This document shows positions 6,028 to 64,000 of a DNA stretch of 64,000 nt, one piece after another. The DNA lies in assembly GCF_036402275.1 (NCBI RefSeq), contig NZ_DASWTF010000027.1:86183-150182 (forward strand). Reading direction: 5' to 3'. Positions within the stretch are counted from its first letter, which is position 1. Every line of letters starts with the position of its first letter. The stretch is from Steroidobacter sp. (GTDB lineage Bacteria > Pseudomonadota > Gammaproteobacteria > Steroidobacterales > Steroidobacteraceae). A program made the position numbers and the translations under genes. The notes below the pieces were generated by a model. It was not told the origin of the DNA. It saw nothing but the letters and a program-made list of their open reading frames with translations, and did no database searches.

Positions 6028-7422
6028 CTAGCGGCCCGATCCCAGTTCGTTCGCCTGCCGATCTTCTTCTTCGTGTTCTTCGTGCTCGTCCCGCTCTTCC
6101 AGCGGTTCGCCGTCGTCCTGGGCGAGGGTGGCGGCGTGGCCGCGGTCGGGGCCGTCGTGCATGAGTTGGACGGCGTCGTCGTCCACCTCGTGGAACGCCG
6201 TGCGGCTGCGGTTGGTGCGCTCGTCGAAATACATGATTTCGTGCTGGCCGATCTGCACCACGTCGCCGTCGTTCAGCATGCGGCGGCGGACGCGCTTGGA
6301 GCGCACGTAGATACCGTTGGTGCTGTTCAGATCTTCCAGCACCGACGTATGTATCGAAGTGATGATCTGCGCGTGATGACGGCTGATGTATTTGCTATCG
6401 ATCTGCAGATCGTTGTCCGGCGTGCGGCCGATGATGAAGCGGCCCGGCGTGAGCTCGCGTTCGGCGATGGTCTGGCCGTTGAAGCCGACCAGGATGCGCC
6501 CGAGCACGATGCGCCGTTCGTTGGAGGGTTCGCTGCCGTTGGCGCCCTGCATGCCGCCGTTCATGCCGCCGGGCGCGCCGTGCAGCGCCTGCAGCTTCAC
6601 CGAACGTTCGGCATATTCGACCCACTGCAATTCTTCGATCGCCGCTTTCACATCGTCCATGGTGACGCTCGGGCGATCCTGCGCGAACGCCGCCATCATC
6701 GCGGTGTCGGCCAGCGTGTTCACCAGGCGCGGAACGCCGCCGGTGTAGCGGTAAATCAAAGGAAATGTTTCCGGATCGAAAATCTCCCGGCCCTGCGAGC
6801 CGGCCACTTCCAGGCGGTGCTGGATATACGCCGACATGTCGGTCTTCGACAGCGCGGTGAGATGGAAACGCAGGCGGATACGTTGCGCCAGCTGCACCAG
6901 CCCCGGCGCATTGAGCTTGTCGTTCAGCTCCGGCTGGCCGGCCAGGATGATGCGCAGGACCTTTTCCTTGGTGGTCTCCACGCCCGACAGCAGCCGGATC
7001 TCTTCCAGCACCTTGTTTGACAGATTCTGGGCTTCGTCCACGATCAGCAGCACGCGCCGGCCGTTGGCGTATTGCTCCACCAGAAACTCGTTCAAGGTGG
7101 CCAGCAGCTCGGCCTTTTTCATCTTGAACGGCGAGAAACCGAACTGCACCAGCACGCTCTGCAGGAATTCGATGGCGGTGACCTGGGTCTGGTTGATCTG
7201 CGCCACCACCACGTCCTTCTCCAGTTCCTTCAGGAAGGTTTCGATCAGGGTGGTCTTGCCCGAGCCGATTTCTCCGGTGATCACGACGAAACCGTCGGTG
7301 AACCAGATGGTGGATTCCATGTACGCCTTGGCGCGCGCATGGTGCTTGGACAGGTACAGGAACTGCGGATCCGGCGTCAGCCGAAACGGCAATTCATGCA
7401 GCTTGAACAGTTCGAGATACAT
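6028..7422 (-). CDS. ExeA/GspA-type AAA ATPase with C-terminal FHA domain
   Basis: PFRLTPDPQFLY, Walker A GEIGSGKT, Walker B LLIVDEAQ, GQPEL; FHA motifs IIGR..DNDL, SRHHA, STNG. Confidence 0.85.
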   Translation of the reverse strand: MYLELFKLHELPFRLTPDPQFLYLSKHHARAKAYMESTIWFTDGFVVITGEIGSGKTTLIETFLKELEKDVVVAQINQTQVTAIEFLQSVLVQFGFSPFKMKKAELLATLNEFLVEQYANGRRVLLIVDEAQNLSNKVLEEIRLLSGVETTKEKVLRIILAGQPELNDKLNAPGLVQLAQRIRLRFHLTALSKTDMSAYIQHRLEVAGSQGREIFDPETFPLIYRYTGGVPRLVNTLADTAMMAAFAQDRPSVTMDDVKAAIEELQWVEYAERSVKLQALHGAPGGMNGGMQGANGSEPSNERRIVLGRILVGFNGQTIAERELTPGRFIIGRTPDNDLQIDSKYISRHHAQIITSIHTSVLEDLNSTNGIYVRSKRVRRRMLNDGDVVQIGQHEIMYFDERTNRSRTAFHEVDDDAVQLMHDGPDRGHAATLAQDDGEPLEERDEHEEHEEEDRQANELGSGR

Positions 7423-19615: not shown

Positions 19616-19689
19616 TGGGGGATCGTCTAGCGGTAGGACTACGGACTCTGACTCCGTCAACCTAGGTTCGAATCCTAGTCCCCCAACCA
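19616..19689 (+). tRNA. tRNA-Gln(CTG)
   Basis: 74 nt TGGGGGA...TCCCCCAACCA; anticodon loop CTCTGAC, T arm CCTAG-GTTCGAAT-CCTAG region, encoded CCA. Confidence 0.97.
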
Positions 19690-23242: not shown

Positions 23243-23432
23243 GGCGCTACCCGCCTGTGCCGTCATGAGCCATTGCTCTCGACACGGAGCAATAGGTGGG
23301 ACGCAGCCGTAGCAGCTAAGGCTTTCCGTTCGAGACGGACTTGCACACCGCTGCTACTGAACCGAATCCCTGGGGTATTAACGTTAGGGTCGAGAGGTAA
23401 CCCGACACATGTCGAACACCGCAGGCAGCGCC
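23243..23432 (-). ncRNA. ssrS: 6S RNA
   Basis: Between zapA and ygfA, the canonical position; ends pair (GGCGCTGCCTG with CAGGCGGGTAGCGCC); contains GAAAGCCTTAG resembling the E. coli 6S GAAGCCTTAA; about 190 nt, boundaries approximate. Confidence 0.85.
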
Positions 23433-35510: not shown

Positions 35511-35595
35511 AGAGGCGTGCATTGTAACCCGTTGCGCCCCTGTCCATGAGCAATGGCCATCGGGTTCGGCTACCATACGCGCACCCATCGCAAGG

Positions 35596-35825
35596 CACGG
35601 CCGGAGAGAGCGGGAACCACCCCGCCGCCGAAGGCGCAACCGCCCGGAAACGCTCAGGCAAATGAACGGCGTGCACTGTGGATCGGGCGGAGCCGCCTCC
35701 GCCCCACCACTCGGCGGGCTCTGGAGAGTAGCTGCCAAACCTCGAGCAGGTCGGCGGTTCACCGAAGGGGAGAGGCTCCAGCTGCAAGCTGGCGCCGGAT
35801 CTCTCAGGTCGCAGGACAGAGGGGG
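35596..35825 (+). promoter_or_regulatory. Tandem glycine riboswitch
   Basis: Aptamer 1 GGAGAGA...CGCCGAAGGCGCAA...CTCAGGCAAA (about 35596-35674); aptamer 2 CTCTGGAGAG...CACCGAAGGGG...CTCTCAGGT...GGACAGAGGG (about 35716-35825); upstream of gcvT. Confidence 0.92.
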
Positions 35826-35894
35826 CGTCGAACGCACGGGCGTTCCGCGCTTTGCTTTTGACCCGATCCACAACGGCTGACTCCGGAGCATTCG

Positions 35895-36977
35895 ATGGGC
35901 CTCAAGACTCCTCTATACGACACCCATGTCGCCGCGGGCGCACGCCTGGTCGATTTCGGCGGCTGGGACATGCCGGTCAATTACGGCTCGCAGATCGAAG
36001 AGCATCACGCCGTGCGCCGCGACGCCGGAATGTTCGACGTTTCCCACATGCTCATCGCCGATGTCACGGGAGCGCGCGTTCGTGACTACCTGCGATATCT
36101 GCTCGCCAACGATGTCGCCAAGCTGAAAGAGCCGGGCAAGGCTCTGTACAGCTGCATGCTCAACGAGCGTGGCGGCGTGGTGGACGATCTCATTGTTTAT
36201 TTCATCAACGAATCCTGGTTCCGCGTGGTCGTGAACGCAGGCACACGCGACAAAGACATCGCGTGGCTGAAGCGCTTTTCCGATCAGTTCCAGGTCGACG
36301 TGAAGCCGCGCACCGATCTGGCCATGATCGCCGTGCAAGGGCCGAACGCGCGCACCAAGGCCGCGACGCTGATCGGCAAATATGCGGACGAAGCTTTACA
36401 GCTGAAAACTTTTGTCGGCCGGGAGTTCGGGCCGTACTTCATCGCTCGCACGGGTTACACGGGCGAAGACGGCTGGGAAATCATGTTGCCGGTGGCTGAT
36501 GCGCCGAAGTTCTGGAGCGACCTGAAGGCCGCTGGTGTCGCGCAGTGCGGACTCGGTGCGCGCGACACGTTGCGACTCGAAGCCGGCATGAATCTGTATG
36601 GCAACGACATGGACGAGAACCTGTCGCCGCTCGAATCCGGTCTCACCTGGACAGTCGCATTCGATCCGCCAGAACGCGATTTCGTGGGGCGCGCTGCGCT
36701 CGAAGCGCAACGCGCCCCGGGCGTGCCGCGCAAGCTGGTCGGTCTGATTCTCGACGATCGCGGAGTGCTGCGCGGTCATCAGCGAGTCGTCACTTCTGCT
36801 GGCGACGGCGAGATCACCAGCGGCACATTCTCGCCCACGATGGAAAAGTCCATCGCTTTCGCGCGCGTGCCCGCGGCGACCGGCGATCGCGTCGAGGTCG
36901 ATATTCGCGGCAAATTGCTCGCGGCCCGCGTCGTGAAATATCCGTTCGTGCGCAACGGCAAGCCGCTGGTTTCCTGA
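35895..36977 (+). CDS. gcvT: Glycine cleavage aminomethyltransferase
   Basis: [43 protein letters not shown]. Confidence 0.98.
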
Positions 36978-57276: not shown

Positions 57277-58179
57277 TTGTTAGCTGTGGACTCCGACTAC
57301 GAAGTACAAACCCGGGTGACCGGGCTCGACGAGCTGCGAGTCAGGCGCCCGGGTCAGGCCTGCCTGGTCGTCATCCATGCGCCCGTGCAAGCCGATCTGG
57401 GCCGACGTTATGTCCTGGACAAGACGGCCACCTCGGTCGGTCGCGGCCGCGATAACGACATCGTCCTGCCCAGCGACTGCGTCTCCCGCCGGCACGCGCG
57501 GCTCGAGCAGCGCGGCGGCCATCTGTTCGTCGTCGACCTGGCGTCCACCAACGGCACGTTCATCAACGACGACGAGCATTCGGTGCGCGAGCGTCAGCTG
57601 CAGCGGGGCGACCGCCTGAAAATTGGCGATACGATTTTCAAATATCTGTCCGGCTCGGACATCGAGCTGCAGTACCACGAGATCATCCATCGCATGACGG
57701 TGACCGACGGCCTGACCGATCTGGCCAACCGCAAGCTGCTCGACTCGGTGCTGGAAGAGGAGATCCCGCGAGCGCGGCGTCACGGTCGCGACCTGTCGCT
57801 GCTGATGCTGGACATCGATCACTTCAAGAGCATCAACGACACCCACGGTCATCTCACTGGCGACTCGGTGCTTCGCGGCCTCGCCGGCATCCTGCAGCGC
57901 CGCCTGCGCCCCGGCGATCGCCTGGGCCGCTACGGCGGCGAAGAGTTCTGCGTCATCCTGCCCGAAACCTCACTGCGCAACGCCGCCAAGATCGGCGAGG
58001 ACCTGCGTTCCCTGGTCGAGGCGCACGCCTTCGTCGCCGAGGATAAAAACATTCGCGTCACCATCTCCGTCGGCGCCGGAACGTTACAGGAAGGCATGAC
58101 TCTGGCCGATCTGTATCGAACGGCGGATGAGATGCTCTACAAAGCCAAGCGCGCCGGAAGAAACAAAGTCTGCTGCTGA
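57277..58179 (+). CDS. FHA-domain diguanylate cyclase (FHA-GGDEF)
   Basis: FHA: VGRGRDNDI, VSRRHA, STNGT; GGDEF: DGLT.L.NR, DIDHFKSINDTHGH, RYGGEEF with RPGD I-site; start could be GTG 57286. Confidence 0.92.
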   Translation: MLAVDSDYEVQTRVTGLDELRVRRPGQACLVVIHAPVQADLGRRYVLDKTATSVGRGRDNDIVLPSDCVSRRHARLEQRGGHLFVVDLASTNGTFINDDEHSVRERQLQRGDRLKIGDTIFKYLSGSDIELQYHEIIHRMTVTDGLTDLANRKLLDSVLEEEIPRARRHGRDLSLLMLDIDHFKSINDTHGHLTGDSVLRGLAGILQRRLRPGDRLGRYGGEEFCVILPETSLRNAAKIGEDLRSLVEAHAFVAEDKNIRVTISVGAGTLQEGMTLADLYRTADEMLYKAKRAGRNKVCC

Positions 58180-58207
58180 GTCCTTTTTGAGGTCGCAAAT
58201 TGCGACC

Positions 58208-60028
58208 TCATTCCACCGTCACCGACTTCGCCAGGTTTCGCGGCTGATCGATGTTCCGGTCTTTCGCCAGGGCCACGTGATAGGCGAGCAGCTGCAATGG
58301 AATGTTCATGAGCAGCGGATCCAGCTCGGGCTCGGATTTTGGCACTTCGATGATGCCGTTGACGGGGACGGGCAAGGGATCGCCCCGGTGGGTGATGGCG
58401 TAGAGCGGGCCGCTGCGCGCGCGAATTTCTTCCAGGGTCGAGACGTTCTTGGCGAACAGATCGTCGCGGGGAATGACGACGACGGTGGGCGTTTCCGGGC
58501 TGATGAGCGCCAGCGGGCCGTGTTTCAGCTCGGAGGCGGGGTAGGCTTCGGCGTGGATGTAGCTGATCTCTTTCAGCTTCAGCGCGCCTTCCATCGCGAC
58601 CGGATAGCCGGCGGCGCGGCCGACGAAATAAGCGCTCTCGTGCGGGGCGAGCTCTTTGGCCAGCTTGGCGATATGCGGCTCCGTCGCGAGGATCTCGTCC
58701 ACCTGGGCGGGCAAGGCTTCGAGCGCTTTCAAAAGACGTGCGCCGTGGGCCGTCGACATGTCTCTGATGCGGCCGAGATGAATCGCAAGCAGAGCAAACG
58801 CCACCGCGGTCGACGTGAAGGTTTTGGTGGAGACGACGGCGATCTCGGGGCCGGCGTGCAAATAGATGCCGCGTCCGCATTCGCGCGCGATGGTGCTGCC
58901 GACGGCGTTGACGATGCCCAGCACGCGACCGCCCTTGCGCTTTACTTCCTGCACCGCCGCGAGCGTGTCGAAGGTTTCGCCGGATTGGCTGACGGCGATA
59001 TAGAGCGTGTCCTGCTCGATCACGGGATTGCGATAACGAAACTCCGACGCGGGCTCCGCATGCGCGGGCACGCGAGCCAGCTGCTCTATCAAGTGCGCGC
59101 CGAAACAGCCGGCGATATAGGCCGATCCGCAACCAAGAATCTTCACGCGGCGGATTTCCAGCAGCTCGCGCGCCGCCATTTCCAGTCCGCCGATGTGCGT
59201 CGTTTGGAAACGGGGCTCCAGACGGCCGCTGAGCGTGCGGCGAATGGATTCGGCCTGTTCGGCGATCTCCTTGCGCATGAAATGCGAGTAGCCTTCCTTG
59301 TCGAAAGACTCATCGGTCCACGGAATGGTCGACGGCGTCTTGGCAGTGGCCCCGCCATCGAGAGTCGACGTCTCGAATCCGTCCGCGCGAACTACGGCGA
59401 TCTCGCCGTCGTCCAGATGCACGACGCTTTGCGTATGCCGAACGAGCGCCACGGCATCGGAGGCAACAAACATTTCCCGCTCGCCGATGCCGAGCACGAC
59501 AGGGCTGCCGTTGCGCGCGACCACGATGCTGTCGGGCCGCTCGGCATCCAGTACTGCGAGCCCGTAAGTTCCCTTGATGTGTCGCAGAGCCTCGCGAACT
59601 TTGTCTTCAAGACTGTCCGCATCTACGGCTGCGATCAGATGGGCCAGCACTTCGGAATCGGTTTCGGAGCGAAACGTCACGCCACTGGCTTGCAGTTTGG
59701 AACGCAGCTGAGCGGCGTTCTCCACGATGCCGTTATGAACGATGGCGAAGCGTTCACCACTGTCGGTGTGCGGATGAGCGTTCCGGTCGCTGGGCTCGCC
59801 GTGCGTCGCCCAGCGGGTGTGCGCGATGCCGGTGGTGCCCTTCAAGCGTTCCGGCAGGGAACGTTCCAGATCGCGCACCTTGCCCTTGCTCTTGAAGATG
59901 CTGAGTTTCTCGTTGCGCGCGCAGGCGATGCCCGCCGAGTCATAGCCGCGATACTCGAGTCGCCGCAGGCCGTCCACGAGGATGGGCGCCGCTTCTCGCT
60001 TGCCGATGTAACCGACGATGCCGCACAT
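58208..60028 (-). CDS. glmS: Glutamine--fructose-6-phosphate aminotransferase
   Basis: MCGIVG, LEYRGYDSAG, HTRWATHG, SQSGET, STKTF, ELKHGPLAL, PRNLAKSVTVE. Confidence 0.97.
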   Translation of the reverse strand: MCGIVGYIGKREAAPILVDGLRRLEYRGYDSAGIACARNEKLSIFKSKGKVRDLERSLPERLKGTTGIAHTRWATHGEPSDRNAHPHTDSGERFAIVHNGIVENAAQLRSKLQASGVTFRSETDSEVLAHLIAAVDADSLEDKVREALRHIKGTYGLAVLDAERPDSIVVARNGSPVVLGIGEREMFVASDAVALVRHTQSVVHLDDGEIAVVRADGFETSTLDGGATAKTPSTIPWTDESFDKEGYSHFMRKEIAEQAESIRRTLSGRLEPRFQTTHIGGLEMAARELLEIRRVKILGCGSAYIAGCFGAHLIEQLARVPAHAEPASEFRYRNPVIEQDTLYIAVSQSGETFDTLAAVQEVKRKGGRVLGIVNAVGSTIARECGRGIYLHAGPEIAVVSTKTFTSTAVAFALLAIHLGRIRDMSTAHGARLLKALEALPAQVDEILATEPHIAKLAKELAPHESAYFVGRAAGYPVAMEGALKLKEISYIHAEAYPASELKHGPLALISPETPTVVVIPRDDLFAKNVSTLEEIRARSGPLYAITHRGDPLPVPVNGIIEVPKSEPELDPLLMNIPLQLLAYHVALAKDRNIDQPRNLAKSVTVE

Positions 60029-60046
60029 GATGAAACATTCCCGAGA

Positions 60047-60301
60047 TCAGCCGTAGATGATTCTGCGGATCTGGCGCTCGCTGTACTCGGGCGCGCGAAA
60101 GCGGCGGCTCGCCAGCTCTTCGCTGATCTGCAGATAGATCGCGCGGTTCGAAAGGCCCTGCGCCTGCAGGGCGAGGTGGCGGCGGCGGACGAAGTCCTCG
60201 GGCATTTCGCTCATGAATGCCAGCACCTCGTTCACCAGCCGCGCGGCCTCCTGAGGAGTGAGGCGGCTGGAGCGGGCCAGAAACTCGACCAGCTCTCCCA
60301 T
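60047..60301 (-). CDS. Small helical protein of unknown function upstream of glmS (84 aa)
   Basis: C-terminal part of the 380-aa ORF: MGELVEFLARSS...RQIRRIIYG; RBS-like GGAGG/AGGA upstream of ATG 60301; ends 18 nt before glmS. Confidence 0.8.
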   Translation of the reverse strand: MGELVEFLARSSRLTPQEAARLVNEVLAFMSEMPEDFVRRRHLALQAQGLSNRAIYLQISEELASRRFRAPEYSERQIRRIIYG

Positions 60302-60501
60302 CTCGTCCTGCCCCTCCATTCGATCCGATGCGGAGGGGAAGTCTGCCGATTCGTCGGTCATTTCCCAACAATCCTGCCCGATTTCGGGCAAGGATACAGT
60401 GATTTGGAGGAGCAAGGCCATTGCAGGATTGTCCATGGGCCGCGCCGAAGGCGCGGCCCATAACCCATTCCCGATGGCGGCATCCCGCCAGGGATGCAAG
60501 C

Positions 60502-61197
60502 CTATTTCTGGAACAGCACCAGATGCTGCAAGGGCAGGGTGTGGACCGTCTTCTGGTGACGGAAGCCGGCCGCCGTGAGCTCGCGGATGATCTGCCGCTC
60601 CGACATTTTGTGGACCGCCTTGATCATCACCGCCGGGTCCTCCGCCCGATATTCGATCAGCGCGAGCCGGCCGCCCGGTTTCAACGCTTCGCGCACCTTG
60701 GTGAGCATCTCGAAGGGAAATTCCAGCTCGTGATACACGTCGACCATGAACAACAGGTCGACGCTGTTCGGTTCGAGGTTGGGATCGCTGGGTGTACTCA
60801 GCACGGTCGTAACATTCGCAACGCCCGCACGCTTCGCGCGGTCGGAAATGATCCGAAGCATGCGCGGCTCCACGTCGATCGCGAGCACGCGGCCTTGCTC
60901 CCCAACCAATGGAGCAATTCGAAACGTGTAGTAACCGGAGCCGGCCCCGAGATCGGCGATCGTCTGGCCAGGTTTGATTTCCAACGCGTCGATGACGAGT
61001 TGCGGACGTTCCTCCGTCTCGCGCTCTGGCCGTTCGAGCCACGGCGCGCCACCAGGTCCCATGACGTGTGCGATCTCGCGGCCAAGATAGAATTTCCCGA
61101 TGCCGTCGGGATCGTGCTCGGCGCGTGTTTCGTAAGGCGGTGGGCCTGCAAACGCGCTGCTCGCGGACAGCAGCAGCGCGAAGAGCCACGCGCGCAT
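60502..61197 (-). CDS. Class I SAM-dependent methyltransferase with signal peptide
   Basis: MRAWLFALLLSASSAFAG, IADLGAGSGYY, VLAIDV, MVDVYHE; start moved to ATG 61197. Confidence 0.88.
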   Translation of the reverse strand: MRAWLFALLLSASSAFAGPPPYETRAEHDPDGIGKFYLGREIAHVMGPGGAPWLERPERETEERPQLVIDALEIKPGQTIADLGAGSGYYTFRIAPLVGEQGRVLAIDVEPRMLRIISDRAKRAGVANVTTVLSTPSDPNLEPNSVDLLFMVDVYHELEFPFEMLTKVREALKPGGRLALIEYRAEDPAVMIKAVHKMSERQIIRELTAAGFRHQKTVHTLPLQHLVLFQK

Positions 61198-61541
61198 CAC
61201 GCGTCGTTGCGGCTCAAATAGAAATAAATGTAGCTGGTGATGAACAGCACGCAGACGCTGCAAGCGAAGATGATGCCCCAGCCGGCGGCAATGATGGCGA
61301 ACACGTCCACCGAGCCCGTCGAGCTGGCCGCCTGCGCGGTCGACAACGAACCGAAGCCCGAGGCGATGGCGAATGCGGTGACGCAACTGAACATCCATTT
61401 CATGAGATAGCCGGGCAGGTAGATTCGCATACTGCGGTTGTGCCGGTAAGCGGCGGCCCGCGCCACCCGATCGCCGCGGCTGGCGTCCTTGAACAGCCAG
61501 AACGGCCACAGATAGCGAAACAACACCAGCGACAGCGGCAT
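61197..61541 (-). CDS. Hypothetical membrane protein
   Basis: FRYLWPFWLFKDA..G....RAAAYRHN followed by two TM helices; stop overlaps the methyltransferase start. Confidence 0.65.
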   Translation of the reverse strand: MPLSLVLFRYLWPFWLFKDASRGDRVARAAAYRHNRSMRIYLPGYLMKWMFSCVTAFAIASGFGSLSTAQAASSTGSVDVFAIIAAGWGIIFACSVCVLFITSYIYFYLSRNDA

Positions 61542-61836
61542 GTCGTCGTAGTGCGAGGCGACGGCTGCACCAGAAGAGCGCGGCATCGGCAGTTACCCGG
61601 TCATAGTTGTGGTCACGAGCCACCGCGTGGCTCGACTCAAGAATAGATGTCCCGCGGCCGGCGATGGTTCCGTGTTCAGCCGGGAGACGGGCAGGCGCGA
61701 TTGCCGCCGCCGCGGCAGGCGGTTCCGCGCGGCTGTGAAAATCACGCCCGCTGTGGAAACACGCGCTGCCCCGGGACGGCGCGCGTGGCTATTCTGCCGG
61801 CCGCCAACGGAATTTCCCTGGCGGACCGGAACGTCA

Positions 61837-64000
61837 GTGCTCAACCCGAACGACACCATTCAGGTCTCCCGTTTTCATCCGCGCACGCCGCCGGGGCGAC
61901 CGCTGGAAGTCGGCTGGGGACAGGCGTTCGGGCGTTGGCTGTGGCATCTCGTCGTGCTGCCGGCGGAACAGGCTCAGCCGTGGCCGCAGTGGGTTATTCG
62001 TTACATCAAGCCGGCCGTATTCGCGCTGGCCAAGCAATTGCGCGTCACCAATCCGAGCAGCATGCGCTCCTGGCTATGGAGTCTGCTGCTGGTCGATCCG
62101 CCGCGCGCTTACTGGTCCAGCCCTGAAACTTACGCCACCGATGCGCGGCGCGGCCGCCCGCCTTCCATCCGTACTCTGCTGCATCAAGCGATCTATCCGT
62201 ATGCGATGCCAGTGGCCTGGTCGAGCGCGCAAAAGTTGGAAAGCGCGTCGCTGGCCGTCAGTCGAGCGTTCTCGCGCCTTCATGTTTCGGTGCGCTACAC
62301 GCTGACCGGTGCAGCTGTGGTGGTGTTCGTGATGGCAGCGACCACGCCGTTGAACCTCGGTCAGCAATCGGTGGTGCTGGTGGGGATGTGGGTGCTCACA
62401 TTGTTGACGCGGCAGCTGACGGGCTATGGGCCCGCCATCATTTTGATGGGCGTGTCAATGCTGGCGTCGTCGCGTTATATCTGGTGGCGTTTGACCCAGA
62501 CCACGGATCTGGATTCCAACCTGGAGGCGTTTCTCGGCCTCGGACTGCTGGCGGCAGAGTGTTACACCTGGGTCGTGCTGGTGCTCGGTTATATTCAGAA
62601 CGCACGTCCGTTGAGGCGAAGGCCGGCGCCGCTGCCCGCGGATCGCGGCAGCTGGCCGACGGTCGATGTTTTCATTCCCACTTACAACGAGCCGTTGAGA
62701 GTGGTGAAGCTCACGGTGCTCGCCGCTCTGAACCTGGACTGGCCGCCAGACAAGCTGCGCGTGTATCTGCTGGATGACGGTCGTCGCGCCGAATTCAAAG
62801 AGTTCGCGAAAGCATGCGGCGCGGAGTACATCGTTCGCCCCAATAACGATCACGCCAAGGCCGGCAATCTGAATCACGCCTTGCAGCTCACCCAAGGTGA
62901 GTTCGTCGCCATCTTCGATTGCGATCACATTCCCGTGCGTACGTTTCTCACCACCACCCTGGGCTGGTTTCTGCGAGACCGGAAGTGCGCGATGTTGCAG
63001 ACACCGCATCACTTTTTCTCGCCCGATCCGTTCGAGCGCAATCTTGGCACGTTCCGGCGCGTGCCCAACGAGGGCAACCTGTTCTACGGACTGATCCAGG
63101 ACGGCAACGACTTGTGGAACGCGACGTTCTTTTGCGGCTCGTGTGCCGTGTTGCGTCGAGGGCCGTTGCAGGAAGTGGGCGGCATCGCGGTCGAGACGGT
63201 CACGGAAGATGCGCACACTGCGCTCAAGTTGCATCGGCGCGGCTATACGACGGCCTATCTGCGCATGGTCCTTGCGGGCGGACTGGCCACCGAGAGTCTG
63301 TCTGGTCACATCGGTCAACGCATTCGCTGGGCGCGCGGCATGGCGCAGATCTTCCGCCTGGACAATCCATTCCTCGGTCGCGGGCTGAGCTTTTTTCAAC
63401 GCCTGTGTTACTCCAACTCGATGCTGCATTTCTTTTCCGGCATCCCACGCTTGATCTTCCTGACCTCGCCGCTGACTTACTTGTTCTTCGAGCTGCACAT
63501 CATCGATGCCACCGCGGTGACGCTCGGAGCGTATGCCTTGCCGCACCTGGTGCAATCGAGCATCGCGAACGCGCATTTGCAAGGCCGCTTCCGGCATTCG
63601 TTCTGGAACGAAGCTTATGAGGCGGTGCTGTCGTGGTACATCGCCCTGCCCACCACGGTGGCGCTGATCAATCCGCGGCTGGGCAAGTTCAACGTCACCG
63701 CCAAGGGCGGGCTCATCGAGCACGATTTTTTCGACTGGCGCATTTCCGCGCCGTACCTAGTGCTGGTGTTGTTGAACATCGCCGGCGCGCTGATCGCCAT
63801 CCCGCGGCTGTTGTTCTGGAACTCCTTCGAGGCGGCCACGGTGGCGGTCAATCTGATCTGGACGTTGTTCAATCTGACGTTGCTCGGCGCCGTGCTGGGA
63901 GTCGCGGCGGAAACGCGGCAAGTGCGCAGCGCTCATCGCGTCGTCAGATCCATGCCGGCGATGCTCATCGCGGCCGACGGTCGCCGAGTCGGCTGCGAGA
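61837..64000 (+). CDS. bcsA: Cellulose synthase catalytic subunit, 3'-truncated by window edge (absent from ORF track)
   Basis: Frame +1 hand translation: DVFIPTYNE, LLDDG, HAKAGN, FDCDH, QTPH, FFCGS, TED, QRIRW, and PilZ-linker RSAHR near 63925; GTG start at 61837 is tentative (frame open from 61516). Confidence 0.93.
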   Translation, partial: MLNPNDTIQVSRFHPRTPPGRPLEVGWGQAFGRWLWHLVVLPAEQAQPWPQWVIRYIKPAVFALAKQLRVTNPSSMRSWLWSLLLVDPPRAYWSSPETYATDARRGRPPSIRTLLHQAIYPYAMPVAWSSAQKLESASLAVSRAFSRLHVSVRYTLTGAAVVVFVMAATTPLNLGQQSVVLVGMWVLTLLTRQLTGYGPAIILMGVSMLASSRYIWWRLTQTTDLDSNLEAFLGLGLLAAECYTWVVLVLGYIQNARPLRRRPAPLPADRGSWPTVDVFIPTYNEPLRVVKLTVLAALNLDWPPDKLRVYLLDDGRRAEFKEFAKACGAEYIVRPNNDHAKAGNLNHALQLTQGEFVAIFDCDHIPVRTFLTTTLGWFLRDRKCAMLQTPHHFFSPDPFERNLGTFRRVPNEGNLFYGLIQDGNDLWNATFFCGSCAVLRRGPLQEVGGIAVETVTEDAHTALKLHRRGYTTAYLRMVLAGGLATESLSGHIGQRIRWARGMAQIFRLDNPFLGRGLSFFQRLCYSNSMLHFFSGIPRLIFLTSPLTYLFFELHIIDATAVTLGAYALPHLVQSSIANAHLQGRFRHSFWNEAYEAVLSWYIALPTTVALINPRLGKFNVTAKGGLIEHDFFDWRISAPYLVLVLLNIAGALIAIPRLLFWNSFEAATVAVNLIWTLFNLTLLGAVLGVAAETRQVRSAHRVVRSMPAMLIAADGRRVGCE

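Follow-up and report, generated by a model that had tools for sequence, protein, structure and literature searches.

We analysed a window of 64,000 nucleotides (nt) from Steroidobacter sp. (contig NZ_DASWTF010000027.1), in which glmS, encoding glutamine--fructose-6-phosphate aminotransferase, is preceded on the same strand by a small open reading frame (ORF) of 84 codons and, further upstream, by a palindrome. The small ORF runs from an ATG at 60301 to a stop codon that ends at 60047, which leaves 18 nt to the ATG of glmS; residues and spacing are exactly those of the initial annotation, which was made from the letters alone and proposed the pair as a hexosamine control module. The same annotation had placed glmS away from glmU and the atp operon and had seen neither a glmS ribozyme nor GlmY/GlmZ. 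Both observations stood: no glmU or atp genes were found in the 64-kb window, and Rfam scans, permissive E-value mode included, returned no relevant match, whether to the ribozyme, the small RNAs or another family, in 59900-60700 at E <= 10 or in the whole window at gathering score.

The glmS product is a full-length member of TIGR01135 (750 bits against a cut-off of 418; 770 bits for NF001484), with a class-II glutamine amidotransferase domain (GATase_6), two SIS domains and the N-terminus MCGIVG, which provides the N-terminal Cys nucleophile. Its closest match in the PDB was E. coli GlmS (512 bits, full length), and the motifs by which it had been assigned to a subtype, ARNGSPVVLGIGEREMFVASD, RVKILGCG and EPASEFRYRNP, were all present in the window ORF.

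Start codon of the small gene and selection on its codons

Most databases give the small gene a product of 104 aa that starts at an ATG at 60361. We counted substitutions by codon position in the window and ten close Steroidobacter-group loci of equal length (n = 11). For codons 21-104 the counts at positions 1/2/3 were 254/147/1318, with synonymous to non-synonymous differences at 1170:369. The 20 codons that only the longer call includes gave 228/204/268 and 91:445, a pattern of change like that of non-coding DNA. We therefore take the ATG at 60301 as the conserved start, and this test supports the 84-aa start chosen in the initial annotation. The 104-aa call was rejected because its extra codons lack a coding signature and hold the conserved -10-like bases of the promoter described below; inside them, GGCAGACT is almost invariant, with one substitution at a single position among the 11 Steroidobacter-group sequences. 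A further ATG at 60319 occurs in the window only. Purifying selection on the small ORF is strong and its cluster-level relatives number in the hundreds, and on these grounds it is not a chance ORF.

Database annotations of this family frequently begin too far upstream and run across promoter and palindrome (in the window, 60302-60361; entries P0001-P0120 and P0121-P0269), with resulting lengths of 100-160 aa. The odd N-termini LPEsGQ, LPDFGQ and CPISGRK that appear in databases are the palindrome DNA translated in different frames.

Linkage of the small gene to one GlmS clade

Neither Pfam nor NCBIfam holds a family for the small protein. A word-indexed search returned 314 relatives, all annotated as 'hypothetical', and an exhaustive HMMER search with a 23-sequence profile returned 395 representatives of 50%-identity clusters, all 70-160 aa long and 294 of them at E <= 1e-10. 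A profile of the actinobacterial-looking members retrieved at least 6,651 clusters at 90% identity, many from Nocardioides, and a Streptomyces query added 785 further clusters. The window sequence derives from a soil metagenome, and the relatives closest to it were from Steroidobacter species.

From 185,579 GTDB species genomes 80 loci were retained, and in all of these the small gene was immediately ahead of glmS in the same orientation; the loci span Steroidobacteraceae, Povalibacter, Granulosicoccaceae, Reyranella, other Alphaproteobacteria and one Thermodesulfobacteriota metagenome-assembled genome (MAG). In soil metagenome loci of the actinobacterial branch, 75 of 80 were linked and the contigs of the other five end at most 155 nt from the small gene. 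The same arrangement was found in Nocardioides genomes, five Streptomyces loci, Nonomuraea and Tsukamurella, and it was kept in three highly divergent members, located on a Spirochaete-like groundwater contig, a 2.2-Mb contig of 43% GC and a MAG of 33% GC. Among the loci with enough sequence to judge, no family member was found apart from glmS, and the cross-phylum two-gene module proposed at the outset held in order and strand in every readable locus. The gap between the two genes ranged from 9 to ~360 nt.

Some loci of this set had peculiarities of their own. In two Streptomyces loci (L167:8280-8638, L168:8280-8593) the spacer between the genes is 315-360 nt long and contains tandem CACCGGAA(A/C)-like repeats, and in other Streptomyces it is ~70 nt long. 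In three loci (L014, L060 and L073) the glmS after the small gene could be matched only piecewise or with a change of frame. The MAGs of L014 and L073 also contain a second module copy that is intact (L013 and L069). Pseudogenised duplicates, frameshift errors of long reads or redundant bins may explain the three loci.

The window GlmS was 44% identical to that of E. coli and 43-45% identical to those of Aeromonas, Pseudomonas and Marinobacter, and 57-63% identical to actinobacterial module-linked GlmS. Among the 325 PLSDB records with a glmS, identities above 47.5% were reached only in Nonomuraea (63.8%) and Tsukamurella (59.6%), and exactly these two records carried the small gene; the GlmS of Gamma-, Beta- and Alphaproteobacteria, Bacteroides, Paenibacillus and archaea were at 43-47%. 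In a neighbour-joining tree, the module-linked GlmS of all phyla formed one clade in 100/100 bootstraps, separate from the canonical proteobacterial clade; a search of PLSDB for a canonical actinobacterial GlmS1 to include in the tree found none. These identities and bootstraps, with the lack of glmU and atp genes in the window, ruled out the canonical proteobacterial GlmS lineage (E. coli type, glmU-linked) for the window enzyme. The subtype claim of the initial annotation was thus borne out by the test that it had set, namely branching with the module-linked GlmS of other phyla and outside gammaproteobacterial GlmS.

The Nonomuraea sequence, filed as 'plasmid I' of Nonomuraea gerenzanensis (PLSDB NZ_LT559118.1, 11.85 Mb), is a whole chromosome. 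It has one glmS in all, which is module-linked, so the module can be the sole, housekeeping glmS copy of a cell. Horizontal acquisition had been suggested initially; for a recent transfer, no sign was found in GC content. The module region has nothing unusual in its GC content and its neighbourhood is syntenic across Steroidobacteraceae; any transfer must therefore be old.

A conserved palindrome at a fixed distance from the promoter

The module loci share the palindrome TGCCCGAnnTCGGGCA. Its pattern TGCCCG-N4-CGGGCA was found upstream of the small gene in almost every locus, and across 152 unique upstream sequences, drawn from several phyla, its 12 specified bases were ~100% conserved. The exact pattern was counted 149 times in 1.26 Mb of related loci, one copy per locus, against 0.57 expected by chance, and it had a single match in the window, at 60375-60390. 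From phylum to phylum the palindrome stays with the gene pair although the surrounding genes differ, as would be expected if the protein that binds it is encoded in the module.

The two positions outside each arm were a pyrimidine on the left and a purine on the right, and in the 152 sequences they varied independently, with counts of 56-66 for C.G, 31-34 for T.A, 22-32 for T.G and 25 for C.A. Because T.G was about as frequent as C.A, whereas a stem in the sense RNA tolerates T.G but not C.A, the element is best described as two degenerate DNA half-sites, tTYYTGCCCGA, without base pairing.

The promoter follows the palindrome at a fixed distance. The scan detected a -35-like TTG in 131 loci, in 111 of which it was 13-14 nt from the palindrome centre, and the geometry of the loci reads centre, 13-14 nt, TTG, 17-18 nt, CAnnnT, 6-8 nt and an in-frame GTG or ATG. 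CAnnnT was at the same place in proteobacterial and actinobacterial loci, and nearly all loci, of Actinomycetota and Proteobacteria alike, start their -10-like hexamer with a conserved C (CACGAT, CAGGAT, CAGACT, CAGAGT) in place of the consensus T. The palindrome centre and the start codon were 49 nt apart in 66 of the 80 actinobacterial loci; most proteobacterial loci had 47-53 nt between them. As judged from sequence, this geometry is the signature of a leaderless mRNA from a housekeeping-type promoter, with the palindrome abutting the -35 element and centred near -49.5. We also considered an extracytoplasmic function (ECF)-type promoter on the basis of GGAAC in the right arm; this reading is less parsimonious, since the left arm mirrors the motif (TTCC) and the start codon is located exactly 6-7 nt past the -10-like hexamer.

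The window and loci closely related to it have the conserved ATG ~39 nt after the -10 element, compared with 6-8 nt in most other lineages. The old start codon position has been lost in the Steroidobacter group, giving a predicted 5' untranslated region (UTR), and the transcription start site (TSS) of the window is predicted at about 60332-60334. The predicted fold of the window 5' UTR was no more stable than that of shuffled sequence (z = -0.22).

The family is widespread in Streptomyces, where its members have the motifs FVRRRHRELQ..G and RQLRR.VYG; the parallel that the initial annotation had drawn, a second GlmS of Streptomyces with a small upstream protein and these motifs, was correct. 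The Streptomyces pair is beside a divergent GH20 hexosaminidase gene and downstream of a cluster for carboxyltransferase, biotin carboxylase, HMG-CoA lyase and acyl-CoA dehydrogenase, a neighbourhood that we take to be the SCO2776-SCO2789 region of S. coelicolor. SCO2789 is GlmS2 (PMC13170358), SCO2788 is an unstudied 'hypothetical protein' (PMC5826349), and glmS2 is part of the DasR regulon in Streptomyces (PMC4398421). According to a differential RNA sequencing (dRNA-seq) report on S. coelicolor (PMC4895711), SCO2788 has its primary TSS (3043459) on the very first coding base, it is among the leaderless transcripts and is listed as an operon with glmS2, the mRNAs of SCO2788 and glmS2 fall in parallel through growth (0.57/0.56, 0.28/0.22 and 0.14/0.16), and SCO2788 is present in the ribosome-profiling tables. 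A literature search on the family, the palindrome or SCO2788 yielded expression tables only. In the related Streptomyces loci the palindrome ends 42 nt upstream of the start codon of the small gene. Since the S. coelicolor transcript begins on the SCO2788 start codon, the palindrome should act as DNA and not as RNA.

A palindrome that forms an RNA hairpin or riboswitch was accordingly rejected, on the symmetric T.G and C.A counts, its location upstream of the -35 element, the S. coelicolor TSS and the lack of an Rfam match. The same evidence bears on the wider reading that the upstream ORF makes no functional protein and is a leader peptide or attenuator, or part of a structured RNA leader with the palindrome as its hairpin. 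Although the ORF is immediately upstream of a metabolic gene and the GC-rich inverted repeat is perfect, we regard this reading as largely refuted and give it hardly any credence. The ORF has a 1170:369 ratio with strong third-position bias, 14 residues that are invariant across phyla and a confident five-helix AlphaFold2 fold; T.G is not favoured over C.A and no Rfam family matches; and SCO2788 has its TSS on the start codon and an entry in the ribosome-profiling tables (PMC4895711).

A protein that is small, Arg-rich, helical and encoded in cis with its target might also bind RNA and regulate the operon mRNA at the level of glmS translation or stability, as a protein counterpart of the glmS ribozyme or GlmZ. 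We found no conserved RNA element, however, and the spacer between the small gene and glmS varies in length and sequence. The sole conserved non-coding element is upstream of the mapped or predicted TSS and its flanks show no RNA-type covariation, and the window 5' UTR folds no better than shuffled sequence, so that RNA binding appears improbable. The conservation of the palindrome favours control of expression over control of enzyme activity.

Predicted structure of the small protein

AlphaFold2 predicted five helices and no strands for the small protein, with a predicted local distance difference test (pLDDT) score of 81-85 and, for the window ORF, of 84.6. Residues 1-36 are acidic (net charge about -4) and residues 37-84 are basic, with ten Arg and a net charge of about +6. 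Fourteen residues are invariant, most of them Arg and all in the C-terminal half (R39, R40, R41, H42, G49, N52, I55, R66, P71, R76, Q77, R79, R80 and Y83); they form the stretches RRRH, G..N..I, R....P and RQ.RR..Y, and the protein ends with RQ.RR..YG.

Four independent lines, each weak, suggest that residues 1-36 weakly resemble the α1-α2 dimerisation helices of HU/IHF. Matches to PF00216 below threshold were obtained for 23 of 49 members (13-16.5 bits against a cut-off of 22.4) and covered profile positions 3-35 only; a PDB profile search placed HU proteins on top at E values of 0.1-1.4; Foldseek superposed ~31 residues on HU at 0.6-0.7 Å (E > 1); and hhalign aligned residues 1-36 only with E. 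coli HU/IHF, at a probability of 72%. The window protein itself had no match to PF00216 and does not belong to HU/IHF, and the lack of β arms places it outside the HU family. A full HU/IHF fold had been considered from the shared C-terminal 'IYG' of IHF-β and an RxxRxP motif; as hhalign aligns residues 1-36 only, these likenesses were put down to coincidence.

Fold and sequence searches of PDB, PHROGs and NCBIfam returned nothing significant, and residues 37-84 had no known match. Among helix-turn-helix (HTH) families (LuxR/GerE, sigma-70 region 4, Mor/C and Xre), no Pfam family recurred in the 49 members at E <= 10, and the HTH-type matches of Foldseek (CENP-B, Mu C, Zeste and MuA) were all at E > 1; the protein belongs to none of the recognised HTH families.

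The lack of a significant DNA-binding domain would suit a different role, in which the small protein is mainly a protein-level partner that binds and stimulates, inhibits or stabilises this GlmS clade and the palindrome is read by another, unlinked factor. GlmR/YvcK and EIIA-Ntr are protein-level partners of this kind for other GlmS enzymes. The co-occurrence of the small protein with one GlmS clade is perfect, no other GlmS type being accompanied by it, and the operon layout keeps the two proteins in a fixed ratio. On the other hand, the palindrome moves with the pair across phyla, so that an unlinked factor would need to be co-transferred, and a nucleic-acid target is suggested both by the weak HU-like signal and by the abundance of Arg in the C-terminal half. 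No fusion of the small protein and GlmS was seen, and with an intergenic gap of 9 to ~360 nt, tight translational coupling is not conserved. We regard a partner of the enzyme as unlikely, while noting that it is compatible with a dual role.

A proposed autoregulated operon

The locus is most likely a self-contained three-part transcription unit consisting of a palindromic operator, a small regulator gene and glmS. A conserved symmetric cis-element was found at a fixed distance from the promoter, as in an autoregulated operon, and only the small gene and the GlmS clade stay with the palindrome across phyla and neighbourhoods, for which reason we assigned the small protein to it. The protein is probably a sequence-specific DNA-binding regulator of its own glmS operon, and we regard the module as a probable autoregulated operator-regulator-target operon, built on an undescribed protein family that would bind DNA. 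That the small protein regulates GlmS is what we infer from this arrangement.

In the proposed mechanism, the protein would dimerise through its acidic, HU/IHF-like N-terminal helix pair, a dimer being expected because the site is symmetric, and the two Arg-rich C-terminal halves would then recognise the two halves of the palindrome tTYYTGCCCGAwwTCGGGCARRAa. The palindrome directly adjoins the -35 element of the putative operon promoter, with its centre ~49-50 bp upstream of the predicted transcription start, and the bound dimer would control transcription of its own gene and of the co-transcribed glmS. The supply of glucosamine-6-phosphate (GlcN6P) for the cell envelope would be set in this manner, possibly in response to GlcN6P, UDP-N-acetylglucosamine (UDP-GlcNAc) or GlmS itself. 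Activation is weakly preferred over repression because the site is just upstream of the -35 element, the -10-like hexamer begins with C instead of T and the -35 element is only a TTG.

A number of points weigh against a DNA-binding regulator. No recognised DNA-binding domain was significant in the protein, as Pfam and NCBIfam returned nothing and all Foldseek matches were at E > 1; a resemblance to a LuxR/GerE or Mor-like HTH, considered at first, was reproduced by no search and is not claimed, and the long loop before the last helix fits a classical HTH poorly. A centre at about -49.5 is no textbook position for an activator, and 84 aa offer little room for a ligand pocket, with no sensing mechanism evident. 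In the window, the promoter is a consensus match only, and the sequencing runs that carry the window sequence are DNA metagenomes only. The membership of SCO2788 in the family is inferred from position, length (85 aa) and synteny, not from sequence. Mutual information between the operator flanks and the protein columns returned only the signal of phylogeny and was uninformative. Finally, the most divergent member (L182, on the 33%-GC MAG contig) is still ahead of glmS, with a GlmS of 654 aa, but no palindrome was found upstream of it; its operator may have diverged or the control may have been lost.

The DNA-binding regulator can be taken further, as a tentative proposal that we think rather doubtful. 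The protein would then be both sensor and effector of a third general route of glmS feedback, beside the ribozyme and GlmY/GlmZ-RapZ, and a minimal dimeric DNA-binding protein with a new combination of folds, in which HU-like dimerisation helices are joined to a previously unseen Arg-rich domain that reads DNA. How far the operator is occupied would depend on GlcN6P or UDP-GlcNAc bound directly at the Arg cluster, or on reversible capture of the protein by GlmS in a 'trigger enzyme' loop. With cis-site, regulator and enzyme co-evolving, the module would be a portable cassette that works on arrival in a new phylum.

Features and surroundings of the module

The features of the module are collected in Table 1.

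Table 1. Coordinates of the glmS module and its flanking elements in the window
Feature	Position	Strand	Basis and remarks
GC-rich hairpin GAGGTCGC-AAATT-GCGACCTC, probable operon end	58189..58209	.	read from sequence
glmS, glutamine--fructose-6-phosphate aminotransferase, 606 aa, module-linked clade	58208..60028	-	TIGR01135, domains and tree
Small protein, 84 aa: acidic N-terminal helix pair (residues 1-36), Arg-rich C-terminal half (37-84)	60047..60301	-	selection, AlphaFold2
Predicted 5' UTR, ~31-33 nt, with purine-rich Shine-Dalgarno-like GGAGGGG...AGGA (60306-60317)	60302..60334	-	promoter geometry
-10-like hexamer CAGACT	60340..60345	-	consensus match; 17 nt after the -35-like hexamer
-35-like hexamer TTGGGA	60363..60368	-	consensus match; starts 14 nt downstream of palindrome centre
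Palindromic operator candidate	60371..60395	.	core TGCCCGATTTCGGGCA at 60375-60390; flanking arms ATCC / AGGAT imperfect
GC-rich hairpin GGGCCGCGCC-GAA-GGCGCGGCCC, probable upstream boundary of transcription unit	60437..60459	.	read from sequence

The two hairpins probably bracket the transcription unit. The one at the operon end sits between glmS and a convergent FHA-GGDEF gene and has a 2-nt overlap with the glmS stop codon; it was missed by a simple terminator scan because no T-run follows it. The other is 42 nt past the stop of the methyltransferase gene upstream.

On one side, the neighbours of the module are lgt, thyA, a SET-domain gene, folA, rluF (pseudouridine synthase) and the FHA-GGDEF gene convergent with glmS, and on the other side a methyltransferase gene, a small membrane protein gene and a BcsA-like GT2 gene. 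The membrane protein (129 aa, ending ...YIYFYLSRNDA; 61197-61586, minus strand) is encoded directly ahead of the module in many Steroidobacteraceae loci, and an S-adenosylmethionine (SAM)-dependent methyltransferase gene is located between the two in the window and in ~20 loci. The GT2 product is a processive glycosyltransferase with a cellulose-synthase-like domain, whose gene (61900-64000, plus strand) is divergent from the module and runs off the window end. A link of the module to a bcs locus or a GlcNAc-containing product had been suggested initially; it did not hold up, as the GT2 gene, 1.6 kb from the module here, adjoins it in only two related loci and the neighbours of the module vary by lineage. 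The GT2 gene and the FHA-GGDEF diguanylate cyclase gene (57277-58179) suggest an exopolysaccharide locus controlled by cyclic di-GMP (c-di-GMP).

Two FHA-domain proteins are encoded in the window, one fused to an AAA ATPase (6028-7422, minus strand) and one fused to GGDEF (57277-58179, plus strand), which suggests signalling linked to Ser/Thr phosphorylation in the source genome. The window also has a tandem glycine riboswitch (35591-35829, plus strand; two aptamers of 56 and 39 bits) with an ORF downstream (35895-36977), a 6S RNA gene (23244-23430, minus strand; 83.5 bits) and a tRNA gene (19616-19686, plus strand).

Significance and comparison with known systems

GlmS is the committed enzyme on the way to UDP-GlcNAc, a precursor for peptidoglycan, lipopolysaccharide, teichoic acids and exopolysaccharides, and glmS control is a textbook case of regulatory diversity that includes a ribozyme, decoy small RNAs and GlmR. 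Through the module, a large family of 'hypothetical' proteins is linked with a single GlmS clade and a single DNA site of almost invariant sequence in soil Proteobacteria and Actinomycetota, including Streptomyces with its glmS2. If the small protein is indeed the regulator, it would represent a new family of transcription factors and would account for what drives glmS2 in the actinomycetes that produce antibiotics, whose development and secondary metabolism receive input from amino-sugar status. The module would also provide a compact, portable promoter-regulator pair, and widespread gene calls that run through the promoter would be corrected.

Among known systems, dedicated regulator genes next to glmS are the closest in logic. 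The gene of the DeoR-family GlmR of Pseudomonas, for example, is likewise immediately ahead of glmS in the same orientation, and a P. aeruginosa record showed a DeoR-family gene in this position. NagC, DasR and NagR, which act on glmS or glmUS, share the logic of control through a palindromic DNA site near the promoter. These regulators are 250-400 aa long and belong to the DeoR, ROK and GntR families with known sugar-phosphate-binding domains, whereas the protein described here has 84 aa, no recognised family and no visible ligand domain. The consensus of the DasR dre site is also unlike the module palindrome.

HU/IHF proteins are similar in residues 1-36 and in size (~90 aa), and some UniRef entries label relatives of the small protein as 'HU family DNA-binding protein'. 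The DNA-binding β-ribbon arms of HU/IHF with their RNP motif (R-x-G-R-N-P) are absent here, however, and residues 37-84 are predicted to be helical and do not align. HU has little DNA sequence preference, whereas the module palindrome is highly specific.

The protein GlmR (YvcK/CuvA) of Bacillus, Listeria and Mycobacterium has ~320 aa, binds UDP-GlcNAc and acts on the enzyme; it is not known to be encoded beside glmS or to have an associated operator. It is likewise a protein dedicated to the tuning of GlmS output (PMC6171935). The glmS ribozyme of Firmicutes and GlmY/GlmZ-RapZ of Enterobacteria are also dedicated devices for glmS control, presumably serving hexosamine homeostasis, but they act on RNA after transcription and sense GlcN6P directly or via RapZ, whereas the conserved element of the module is upstream of the predicted TSS. 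In contrast to the ribozyme, GlmY/GlmZ-RapZ and GlmR, the module would thus act at transcription initiation.

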